From Anaerolineae bacterium (GTDB lineage: Bacteria > Chloroflexota > Anaerolineae > Aggregatilineales > Aggregatilineaceae), in NCBI GenBank assembly GCA_034437275.1, contig DAOTUD010000185.1:17702-81701 (forward strand): 64,000 nt of DNA. Direction: 5' to 3'. The position numbers and the translations under genes are program-made. Below the pieces are notes generated by a model. That model ran no database searches. It was not told the DNA's origin and worked only from the letters and a program-made list of their open reading frames with translations. This document shows positions 11,804 to 14,194 of this stretch, in pieces (the first letter of the stretch is position 1; every line of letters begins with the position of its first letter).

Positions 11804-14194
11804 TTACTGCCCTGCGGGTGCATCTGACTCAACGGGTTCTAGATCGCGGGGCAAGGCCAGCCCTTCGATCTTCTCAAGTTCACCTTCACGATAGAATGTC
11901 TGTGGCTCGCGGGTGCCATCGGCGTCTTCGTAGTATTCGATGTAGGCCGGTTCCCCGTTGCACGACACCTCGTAGAAGATTTCGTAGTCGGTGCTGGTTT
12001 CGGCCTGGCTCAGGCGCACCCCTTCGACCACAATCGGCTCCATAGGCAGGCAGCGCCCCGCGTACTCGCTGCGCTTGCCAAAGCCCGACGCACCTACCTC
12101 GGTCTTGGGGATACGCACATAGCGGCGGTCACCGTCATCGTCTTCGATCCAGGCGTCGCTGTCTTCGATATAGCGGGTGACATCGCCCGGCACAAAGGCC
12201 AATGGCCCCTTGAGGTTGTCCTGCATGATCCATCCCTCAAGCACCTGTTCTTCCAGGCAGATCGAGCGGACGGTGGTGGTACCGCGCAAGCCCTCGAAGG
12301 CCACCTCGACGGTCAGTTCCGCCTGATCCAGCTGGCAGCCGGTGCAGGTGATGTAGTAGTAGATCGTGTCGACCCCTTCATATTCCTGGATCGACGCGAC
12401 TGTGTCCGGCGTGCACTGTCCCAGGACGTTGGCATCGTCACCTGCGGGGATGGCCAGGGCGGGGTCAGTCGTCAGGTACAACGGCTGGGCGAAGTCGATC
12501 ACGAAACGCTTGGCATCTTCCGCGCCCCCAGCCGCCGCCACATCATCACCGGTGTCGGCTGCGACGTCGTCTGCCGCGGCATCACCGGCGTCGTCTTCAA
12601 CTTCGGTTGTGCCTTGTTCCGCCGCAGTGCGAGCCTGCTCGGCGATCTCTTCGGGCAGTTCGTCGGCAAAGAAGGGCACCGGCGAAGCCAACAGGAGCAC
12701 ATCTATCCCTGGATCGTAAAGCAGCGGACCGACGAAGTAGCGCTGGTCCAGCCAGCCTTCAGCTTCCTGCGGGGTTCCGTCGTCTCCTTCGTACATACAG
12801 GTAAATTTATAGTAAATCTCGCTGTCATCAATCAACTGGGCATCCGTCGCACGCAGCACCGCGTCCATCGGGCAGTCCACAAATTCGACGTTGGGGTCTG
12901 TCCGGGGCATTGGTTCGGTCGTGAGCTGGAAGTCCGGTCCGGCATCAGGCGGCAAGATCGGCAGCGCACGCTGCTGAACCTTGATCTCGGCGGGGCCAGC
13001 CAGGTCGTTGTTCGTGAGCCAGCCCTTCTGATAGCCGGCGAAGTTGCCCATTGTGTCGTACAGGGGACATTCGGCCCGGTAGTAGATTTCCCGGATGCCG
13101 TCGCCGTCTTTGTCAAACGCATGGATGCGCAAAATCGGCACAATGGTGCCGGGGGCGCACTGCGGGCCAAACGCGACGGCGGGCTGCGGCTCGAACTGGT
13201 CATCCAGCAGCGTCACGACATCGCTGTCGTCCTGGGTCAGGGTCAGGGCCAACTGGCCGCGCGGGAAGTCCAACGGCCCGGCCAAACGCTCTTCGACTAC
13301 CCAGCCGACCGATCCGACGCAGTCCGCCAGATAGTAAATATTGGCGACGGCGATGGTGACCTTGGTGCCGTGCAGCGTGCTCACCGTCTCCATCTGAGCC
13401 AGGTCTTCCTGGAGCAACTGCCCCTCAGCGACATGGTACAGCAGGATCTCCGCCAAGGCATCGGGGTCGCTGGCCAGAAATTCATCGACCGTCAGACCTT
13501 GCAGGCTCAACATATTCTCGAAGGCTTCGTCGGGCGGGGCAAAGAGCGTGAAGGGGCCATCGCCCTGCAGCGTAGCGGCCAGCCCGGCTTTCTCGAGGGC
13601 CGCCGTCAAGATCGCAAAGTCGAAGCGATCGTCTTGCTGGAGCAGGCTGAGCATGTCCTGTCCATCGCCCGCCCCAGCGGCAGCATCCACCGCCGCGCCG
13701 TCCGCAGCGGGGGTGCCGCGGGGCAGTTGGTCCACGCCTTCCGGCAGCAGTACGCCGTTGAGCACATGAATGACCCCGTTATCCGCCTCGATATCAGGGA
13801 TCATCACCCGGCCTTCGTATTCGCCCTCGTTCAGGTACAGGTCGCCGCCTTCTTCATAGATGCGGCCTGCGTACAAGATGTCTGCCGCCGAGTTACCCTC
13901 GCACAAGGCTTTGGTGTTGGTTTTGTTGTCCAGCAAGGGTTCTGGCTTCAGCGTCATGTAGAAGAACGCTTCGCCCTCCTCGTTGGGAGCCAGCACAGTC
14001 TCCAAAACGTCAAACTGTGCGTTTTCATCGACGGGAAGGGGCGTTGGTGTATAGAACGGGGTCAGTTCGAACAACCCCAAATCGCCCGAATAACAGGCCA
14101 GGCTGGCCAGCATCAACATCATGATGACCAGCATCAATGCGCCTGAAAGTCCTAAAGTTTTTTTGTTCACGTTCACGTTTCTCCTCTTCTTCAT
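11804..14194 (-). CDS. Secreted or membrane-anchored 796-aa protein: fasciclin (FAS1) motifs plus five Cys-bracketed SH3b-like repeats and an acidic linker
   Basis: N-terminal hydrophobic anchor ([15 protein letters not shown]). FAS1 signatures [13 protein letters not shown] and [13 protein letters not shown]...LLYHV. Recurring module C..(I/L)YY...C...GW...L.GP. Confidence 0.7.
   Translation of the reverse strand: [796 protein letters not shown]

Follow-up and report, generated by a model that had tools for sequence, protein, structure and literature searches.

How does a domain come to be written into a protein with its last quarter ahead of its first three quarters, and what is such a protein doing among the genes of an Opp-type ATP-binding cassette (ABC) importer? 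Both questions are raised by one gene, here called X, in a stretch of 64,000 nucleotides (nt) from an Anaerolineae bacterium of the family Aggregatilineaceae (GCA_034437275.1, contig DAOTUD010000185.1, positions 17,702 to 81,701), which was analysed as a whole and is referred to as the window. The sample that carries X is a microbial-mat metagenome. A first-pass annotation, made from the DNA letters alone, had read X as a secreted protein of 796 amino acids (aa) that combines motifs of the fasciclin (FAS1) domain in permuted order with five cysteine-bracketed SH3b-like modules and an acidic linker. In the program-made list of open reading frames (ORFs), X is indeed a 796-aa ORF at 11804..14194 on the minus strand of the window. 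The explanation that we favour as a whole, by a modest degree, is that X carries a complete FAS1 domain that is both circularly permuted and nested within another domain, and that it is a partner of the importer in whose operon it lies.

Fasciclin (PF02469) is the single family found in X by a Pfam scan (E 2.9e-25; 89.3 bits against a cut-off of 22), and its match falls into two stretches. In a scan of fragments with the same gathering score, residues 112-151 correspond to profile positions 88-123 (25 bits) and residues 192-285 to positions 2-92 (72.7 bits), and nothing FAS1-like is found in residues 40-111 or past 285. The motifs quoted in the first-pass annotation stand at the residues given there (FDFAIL... 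from 191, LLYHVAEG at 251-258, TLHGTKVTI at 273-281 and the C-terminal FAS1 signature at 134-151), and the C-terminal signature does precede the N-terminal half of the domain. One copy each of the H1-like TLFAP (216), YH (253) and H2-like NGVIH (139) motifs is present, so that, as had been remarked, no second NGxIHxI follows; the order is H2, linker, H1 and YH instead of the canonical linear H1, YH and H2. The two pieces are not the pair of partial, low-significance hits that had been named as the outcome that would overturn the FAS1 reading: they are complementary, and each exceeds the 22-bit cut-off. When residues 186-285 and 112-153 are rejoined in silico, one unbroken PF02469 match covers positions 2-123 of 123 (103 bits, E 1.6e-29), and the re-ordered domain aligns end to end (6-140 of 142) with 706 ordinary FAS1 domains taken from the proteins that the first database search with X returned, at identities of up to 50%. 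At the level of sequence, it is very probable that the FAS1 domain of X is circularly permuted.

The place of the cut can be read from human TGFBIp (5nv6), to which X residues 182-285 align at 506-603 and residues 130-168 at 613-651, both ranges falling in one domain, the last, FAS1-4. From these ranges, the FAS1 domain was cut between the TGFBIp segments KLEVSLKN and NVVSVN, which are bracketed by residues 603 and 613. The second sheet of the FAS1 fold consists of β3-β4-β5 (PMC6032426). Judged by their sequence pattern, the two segments flanking the cut appear to be neighbouring strands of this sheet. If this assignment is right, the new N- and C-termini would lie side by side and could continue the strands of a host hairpin, which is what a hairpin graft needs. 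A 39-aa Ala/Gly/Asp-rich linker (residues 152-190) connects the original ends of the FAS1 domain. A full-text search of the literature found no paper describing a permuted FAS1 domain and nothing relevant on FAS1 combined with SH3b or with an ABC transporter, and the word permutation is absent from a 2018 review of FAS1.

The homologues of X tell where the permuted domain is placed. Besides an identical protein (P0001), the first database search brought up 13 proteins of 544-576 aa in which Pfam recognises no domain and hundreds of multi-FAS1 proteins, whose matches cover just 11-38% of X, typically 20-25%. The 13 homologues are colinear with X except that residues ~112-285 are missing, and their hairpin at this place reads ...C-x7-(I/V)L(Y/F)(A/V)G-[4-6 residues]-YYL(V/I)xC-G-SVGW.... 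A search with a FAS1-free profile enlarged the family to 67 clusters, every one named 'hypothetical protein', of which P0001 is the only one with FAS1; the other 66 are continuous across the hairpin without residues ~112-285, and the FAS1-free form of 545-590 aa, represented by about 80 homologues, is the norm for the family. Because the homologues without these residues run continuously, FAS1 can be placed as inserted where the module-1 β-hairpin turns; the invariant C98 and C292 stand on either side of the base of this hairpin. The first-pass annotation had offered circular permutation and nesting as alternatives; the re-ordered 103-bit match and the homologues without ~112-285 point to both at once.

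In a scan of GTDB species genomes, two more genomes proved to share both the permuted insertion and its site with X: an Anaerolineaceae metagenome-assembled genome (MAG; L002), whose product appears to correspond to P0125, and an Aggregatilineaceae MAG (L003). Between the window and L002, each FAS1 piece is 41% identical, the host modules are 32-60% identical and the internal linker 21%. Between L002 and L003, the insertion has 39.5 synonymous and 8.5 non-synonymous differences, with a ratio of non-synonymous to synonymous rates (dN/dS) of 0.05, compared with 0.07 in the remainder of the protein. The permuted FAS1 insertion is old, and it is under selection. We have high confidence in the architecture of X, in the nesting of the domain at the level of sequence and in the selection on the insertion. 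The family is restricted to Chloroflexota, mostly Anaerolineae, with hosts among Anaerolineaceae, Aggregatilineaceae, Thermoflexus, Ardenticatenia MAGs and two 'uncultured Chloroflexia' MAGs, and a Phototrophicales MAG hosts a distant clade. Its profile matches 61 clusters in 1.84 billion representative proteins, and an NCBIfam scan of X found no family. Taken singly, FAS1, SH3b-like repeats, circular permutation and domain insertion are nothing new; their combination in X, a permuted FAS1 in a stapled hairpin of a lipoprotein family from an Opp cassette that has no binding-protein gene nearby, is unannotated in the libraries searched and was not found in the literature searched, which agrees with the impression of the first-pass annotation that the architecture was not a described one.

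Natural tandem-FAS1 proteins are colinear with residues 100-300 of X over the end of one repeat, the inter-repeat region and the start of the next. The permuted domain may descend from such a gene with tandem FAS1 repeats, the end of repeat k having been captured together with the start of repeat k+1. A frame laid across two tandem copies is a textbook route to a circular permutant, and swaposins and the permuted PDZ domains of HtrA/Ctp proteases are natural circular permutants that arose from tandem duplication. As in X, their permutation is explicable by such a frame, with the new termini in a hairpin; unlike theirs, the permuted unit of X is also inserted in a host domain, and without the permutation such a graft would not be feasible geometrically. 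Ordinary FAS1 domains, such as FAS1-4 of TGFBIp and of periostin and those of the Beta-Ig-H3/fasciclin protein 1w7d, which we take to be Rhodobacter sphaeroides Fdp, and mycobacterial MPB70/MPT70, share with X the full set of profile positions, the H1, YH and H2 motifs and an extracytoplasmic location, and tandem bacterial FAS1 domains are those that reach 50% identity. They stand alone or in tandem, whereas in X the last quarter comes first, is followed by the 39-aa linker and is nested with the rest in the hairpin of another domain. X is thus a natural and selected case of circular permutation and domain insertion together, and its permuted nested FAS1 may be useful for understanding and engineering domain insertion.

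The hairpin turn accepts more than one domain. In P0135, P0137, P0138, P0143 and their relatives, a galactose-binding-like domain (Mann_GBD_bact, PF21253) is found at the same turn of module 1. This clade is a more distant one and sits in the same cassette (X at 9001-11178 of L032 and 9001-11073 of L033). The second tip domain, the prevalence of the FAS1-free form and the fixed place of X in an Opp cassette, described below, all lay beyond the view of the first-pass annotation. Longer relatives, of 1022-1034 aa, also occur (P0134, P0144 and P0245).

To compare the modules of the host protein, a 14-sequence alignment was cut into modules that were compared profile to profile by hhalign. Modules 1-4 match one another at 93-98% probability (E 2e-7 to 1e-12), and module 5 matches the others at 4-40% only. 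By this comparison, modules 1-4 are clearly homologous and module 5 is a divergent copy, so that four of the five repeats of the first-pass annotation stand as proposed and the fifth only in weakened form. From the joint module alignment, the consensus is C-x3-(S/T)-x~12-[hairpin]-YYxxxC-G-x3-GWVxxx(R)LxGPL; the Cys, IYY/IFY, GW and GP motifs lie where they had been placed, except that module 5 of X is without GW. The cysteines of X are found at 98/292, 346/376, 441/466, 594/617, 620/646 and 715/745. C98, C292, C346, C376, C441, C466, C594, C617, C715 and C745 are invariant in the 67 aligned sequences and C620 and C646 are conserved in at least 90% of them, so that the cysteine pairs first noticed in X alone are a property of the family; their position and conservation suggest that they are paired as disulfides. 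Each of the five modules has such a conserved pair at the foot of its hairpin. The Asp/Glu/Ala-rich linker is as it had been described (residues 505-562, 59% Asp+Glu+Ala, net charge -16), and it is partly disordered in the predicted structure.

With 14 sequences, AlphaFold2 (AF2) produced a model with a predicted local distance difference test (pLDDT) score of 52, unusable save for a hint by Foldseek to the AtlE repeat domains 4epc (E 0.05). With 67 sequences, the model has a pLDDT of 79.3 and a predicted template modelling (pTM) score of 0.73; most of the family body exceeds 90 and is almost entirely β, and low confidence is confined to three regions: the signal peptide with the tether, the FAS1 insertion, and a stretch of the acidic linker (pLDDT <50 at 539-560). 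As this pTM is reached with ~200 residues of low confidence included, the modules probably form one packed, defined body and are not beads on a string. Among PDB structures, Foldseek finds one significant match of this model, to 9a7d_A of B. subtilis YrvJ (E 4.1e-5, probability 0.99), which we take to be a cell-wall amidase with tandem SH3b repeats. The second match is 3m1u_B (E 7.5e-3), a γ-D-glutamyl-L-diamino acid endopeptidase that presumably carries SH3b domains. No binding-protein fold is among the listed top 50 PDB matches of the model, and the search against viral structures gave no match below E 0.01.

By sequence, the likeness to SH3b domains is fainter. None of the 67 members reaches the gathering score of SH3_3 (PF08239) or GW (PF13457): sub-threshold Pfam matches are found to SH3_3 in 16, to GW in 7 and to SH3_2 in 2 of them, with a best E of 0.003, and X itself has no SH3 match. 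SH3_3 or GW is also listed among the precomputed Pfam domains of four relatives. The X motif YYxxxC...GWVxxxxL resembles the SH3_3 signature WykV...GWv..syl, as we read the Pfam consensus. Like the tandem SH3b/GW repeats of YrvJ, S. epidermidis AtlE (R2ab, 4epc) and the NlpC/P60 endopeptidase DVU_0896 (3m1u), X is an array of small β-barrels, as far as the model can tell. In contrast to these hydrolases, it has no catalytic domain, has a Cys pair in every module, has no significant sequence match to a solved SH3b domain, is predicted to be lipid-anchored and is encoded inside an ABC importer operon. The 'SH3b-like' of the first-pass annotation is therefore reasonable as a description of the fold, for which the structural match to YrvJ provides moderate support, but the modules are not established as members of the SH3b family. 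Elsewhere in the window, a 619-aa protein (53054..54913, +) combines a PPC pre-peptidase domain with an above-threshold SH3_3.

X had been called secreted, and a signal peptide is present; 'probably lipid-anchored' describes the protein better. Its N-terminus consists of KKRR, a hydrophobic stretch and a lipobox-like LASLA-C34, and C34-Y35-S36 are invariant among the 67 aligned members, so that X has what is expected of a bacterial lipoprotein, a signal peptide that ends in a lipobox with an invariant Cys. The lipobox also fits what we take to be the rule of the PROSITE PS51257 type, with six uncharged residues before the Cys and A at -1. Gene callers differ in the start of X, which is 796 aa from an ATG in JGI and 788 aa in NCBI, ENA and Logan, 8 codons downstream (the difference being window 14170..14194), and the signal peptide and C34 are retained with either start.

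The genes around X encode an Opp/Dpp-type importer, with two BPD_transp_1 permeases of the OppB and OppC types and two ABC_tran/oligo_HPY ATPases. Wherever the contig extends far enough for the order to be judged, it is oppD-oppF-oppC-X-oppB, with X in fourth place; this holds for every one of the 28 GTDB loci as well as for L001, L030, L032 and L033, and the cassette often adjoins the genes for seryl- and leucyl-tRNA synthetases (SerRS and LeuRS). No SBP_bac_5 gene lies within ±9-10 kilobases (kb) of the cassette in L001, L030, L032 and L033, none of the large ORFs of the 64-kb window matches SBP_bac_5, and in the flanks examined no cognate family-5 binding protein is encoded with the permeases. 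We have great confidence in both the fixed operon position of X and its lack of a binding-protein fold. In nearly all loci, the exception being the frameshifted L028, OppC, OppD and OppF are 74-89% identical to the window proteins, whereas identity to the window is 61-79% for SerRS, 51-79% for LeuRS and 33-41% for X. By these identities, the transporter core is very strongly conserved, and its extracytoplasmic companion X evolves fast. OppC, OppD and OppF thus outdo the adjacent tRNA synthetases in conservation, which is unusual for a nutrient-uptake transporter.

The length of OppB varies with the tip of X. OppB has 402-432 aa in 24 loci with an insertion-free X, 505 and 511 aa in the loci with the galactose-binding-like tip (L032 and L033), and 608 aa (window) and 906 aa (L002) in those with the permuted FAS1 tip. 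In L005, whose X is cut short at its 5' end, OppB has 672 aa. The extra sequence lies in the loop between transmembrane segments 1 and 2 (TM1-TM2; window OppB aa ~97-345), which is extracytoplasmic by the established topology of this permease family. In the FAS1 clade, this loop contains a long Ala/Glu/Gln/Tyr-rich helical segment after a CPE...GCYDEY motif. The covariation suggests that the elaborations of the OppB loop and of the X tip belong together. OppC is also ~80 aa longer than usual, the extra residues following the first membrane segment (aa ~58-128) and including four Cys (CARDNLNSNPYWC...HCFRDTPDYSQEQWC), and OppB, OppC and X, the membrane or surface proteins of the cassette, thus all have Cys-containing ectodomain additions.

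We can only infer the function of the X family from these data. Based on the cassette and the predicted fold, we propose that X may be an extracytoplasmic, membrane-tethered partner of the Opp-type importer, whose SH3b-like array would dock to envelope material or capture a ligand and whose hairpin tip would be a slot for an exchangeable extra binding head, a permuted FAS1 here and a galactose-binding-like domain in another clade; we give this detailed role an even chance. In NlpC/P60 recycling peptidases, SH3b domains contribute to the recognition of stem peptides, and other bacteria take up murein peptides through Opp systems. For these reasons cell-wall peptides are one candidate ligand, and their capture by X is a lead, not a result. 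The tip head may cooperate with the enlarged ectodomain loop of OppB. Judged by what is usual for FAS1 and galactose-binding-like domains (PMC1949818, PMC6032426), the head could bind glycans or material of the cell surface. A further-reaching form of the proposal, which we regard as unlikely, would cast X, which lacks the periplasmic-binding-protein fold, as the receptor through which a type I ABC importer obtains its substrate; a lipid-anchored array of disulfide-stapled SH3b-like barrels would capture a ligand such as cell-wall peptides or glycopeptides and hand it to OppBC, with the tip and the OppB loop tuning the capture.

The permuted order could in principle be an artefact of assembly or gene calling, given the metagenomic origin of the window. 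This explanation is refuted and its probability is negligible: several contigs obtained independently (JGI, ENA, NCBI and Logan) encode the identical protein, two further genomes have the same arrangement at ~41% identity, and the reading frame is intact. The two FAS1 matches could also be decayed remnants of separate domains that form no single folded unit, as the low AF2 confidence over the insertion (pLDDT 33-70 at residues 117-285) might suggest. The low score is explained by the zero alignment depth of this region, in which the helices of the N-terminal part are nevertheless predicted at the expected places. MAFFT misplaced the permuted FAS1 fragments, and also natural multi-FAS1 proteins, when body and insertion were aligned jointly. 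The pieces cover the profile exactly once, contain H1, YH and H2 once each and yield 103 bits in one stretch when re-ordered, and purifying selection on them is as strong as elsewhere in X. The remnant explanation is therefore disfavoured and very improbable.

With a lipoprotein signal, a size of ~570 aa once the insertion is discounted and a position within an opp operon, X resembles the OppA of Gram-positive bacteria, and one might see in it a very divergent OppA of the periplasmic-binding-protein type. Neither Pfam nor NCBIfam gives a match to SBP_bac_5 or another binding protein, PDB sequences give none either, and the confident model consists of all-β repeats with no binding protein among its listed top 50 Foldseek matches; at the level of the fold this explanation is refuted, and we consider it highly improbable. 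The main rival, possible though doubtful, is that X does no more than tether the transporter to the wall or serve it as a scaffold, or that it is an envelope protein unrelated to the transporter whose operon it shares, and that family-5 binding proteins encoded elsewhere deliver the substrate, in the manner of the orphan OppA paralogues of streptococci, which are encoded away from the permeases. The usual role of SH3b and GW repeats is to fix proteins to polymers of the wall, the best structural matches of X are wall hydrolases, and X diverges far faster than OppC, OppD and OppF, all of which would suit a tether. The strict place of X between two permease genes in every locus of several families, with a 9-nt gap to oppC, the covariation of OppB loop length with the X tip domain and the lack of a binding-protein gene in any annotated flank speak for the importer partner instead. 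Several points weigh against the explanation that we prefer as a whole. The region in which the two FAS1 pieces would pack into one domain has low confidence in both AF2 models. The search for binding proteins covered ±8-10 kb around the cassettes, and a canonical one may be encoded elsewhere in the genome; the covariation of OppB with X comes from about three lineages; and the entry 9a7d was obtained by integrative modelling and not by crystallography. The module profile found nothing among PDB sequences at E up to 10, the family profile found chance-level matches only, and hhalign gave the module profile a probability of 0.3% against the canonical SH3_3 domain of the 619-aa protein at window 53054..54913.

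Among known importers, the closest parallels to the proposed partner are lipoproteins that share the context of X and not its sequence. Family-5 (cluster C) OppA/DppA lipoproteins have the operon context, the lipoprotein signal and the approximate size in common with X, and no sequence or fold relationship to it. Mycoplasmas have non-canonical OppA lipoproteins, such as the adhesive P100 of M. hominis, an opp-operon lipoprotein that replaces a recognisable OppA and whose role as a binding subunit has experimental support. X is likewise a lipoprotein-type protein in an opp operon in the place of a recognisable OppA, with an unrelated sequence. If X were a receptor, it would be an exception to the rule of one fold class of binding proteins for type I importers. 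In either case, an unannotated family is brought to light as the only non-canonical gene of a highly conserved ABC importer cassette, and Aggregatilinea lenta is a cultured host in which its role can be tested. The features of X and of the cassette are collected in Table 1.

Table 1. Parts of gene X and of the surrounding opp cassette, with their positions in the window and the evidence for each.
Feature	Residues	Position	Strand	Evidence
Gene X, 796-aa lipoprotein-type protein		11804..14194, stop codon included	-	ORF list; identical protein on independent contigs
Signal peptide to lipobox-like LASLA/C34	1-34	14093..14194	-	Basic N-terminus, hydrophobic stretch, Cys; C34-Y35-S36 invariant
Pro/Thr-rich conserved tether after the (predicted) lipidated Cys	35-55	14030..14092	-	Alignments; low pLDDT at residues 42-48
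Module 1, N-terminal part up to outgoing hairpin strand; C98	56-111	13862..14029	-	Alignment; model strands 94-99 and 102-113, pLDDT >90
Permuted FAS1 piece 1, C-terminal quarter with H2 motif	112-151	13742..13861	-	Pfam Fasciclin positions 88-123; residues 130-168 align to TGFBIp 5nv6 613-651
Ala/Gly/Asp-rich linker joining original FAS1 termini	152-190	13625..13741	-	No profile match; 21% identity to L002; net charge -6
Permuted FAS1 piece 2, N-terminal three quarters with H1 and YH	191-285	13340..13624	-	Pfam Fasciclin positions 2-92, 72.7 bits; aligns to TGFBIp FAS1-4 506-603
Module 1, returning hairpin strand and remainder; C292, GW297, GP306	286-330	13205..13339	-	Alignment; model strands 284-292 and 295-300
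Module 2; C346/C376	331-415	12950..13204	-	hhalign, module alignment, pLDDT >90
Module 3; C441/C466	416-504	12683..12949	-	hhalign, module alignment, AF2 model
Acidic linker, one predicted helix and disordered stretch	505-562	12509..12682	-	Composition; length and sequence vary across family; pLDDT <50 at 539-560
Module 4 with additional Cys pair; C594/C617, C620/C646	563-675	12170..12508	-	hhalign, family alignment, AF2 model
Module 5, divergent; C715/C745; GL in place of GW	676-796	11807..12169	-	Weak hhalign matches; Cys and G778 invariant; pLDDT >90
oppC-type permease gene, enlarged four-Cys extracytoplasmic loop, 9 nt upstream of X		14204..15349	-	NCBIfam and Pfam matches; gene spacing
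oppB-type permease gene, ~200-aa helical insertion in TM1-TM2 loop, 59 nt downstream of X		9918..11744	-	NCBIfam and Pfam; OppB comparison
oppD and oppF ATPase genes		15418..17443	-	ABC_tran and oligo_HPY domains; conserved gene order

Other genes associated with the cassette vary among the loci. Downstream of oppB, L001 (13218-18953) and L033 (12868-19448) encode an FHA/Yop-YscD_cpl protein, a protein of ~830-850 aa, which in L001 matches DUF7408 weakly, and a further ABC ATPase, and a weak match to a second ATPase is found at a like distance (1-7 kb downstream of oppB) in many other loci. The window instead has a single-domain response regulator (9403..9765) and a pyruvate:ferredoxin oxidoreductase (5694..9281) downstream of oppB. 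Long antisense ORFs of 615 aa (9867..11714, +) and 510 aa (12614..14146, +) face oppB and X; in a genome with 60% G+C, shadow ORFs are the most likely explanation for them, and no family matched coding-strand alternatives. Further envelope-related genes of the window encode a sortase-domain protein (3709..5082, -), an M23 peptidase (24681..25511, -), a LysM protein (25991..26941, -) and an S41 (Ctp-type) protease with a PDZ domain (42146..43555, +).

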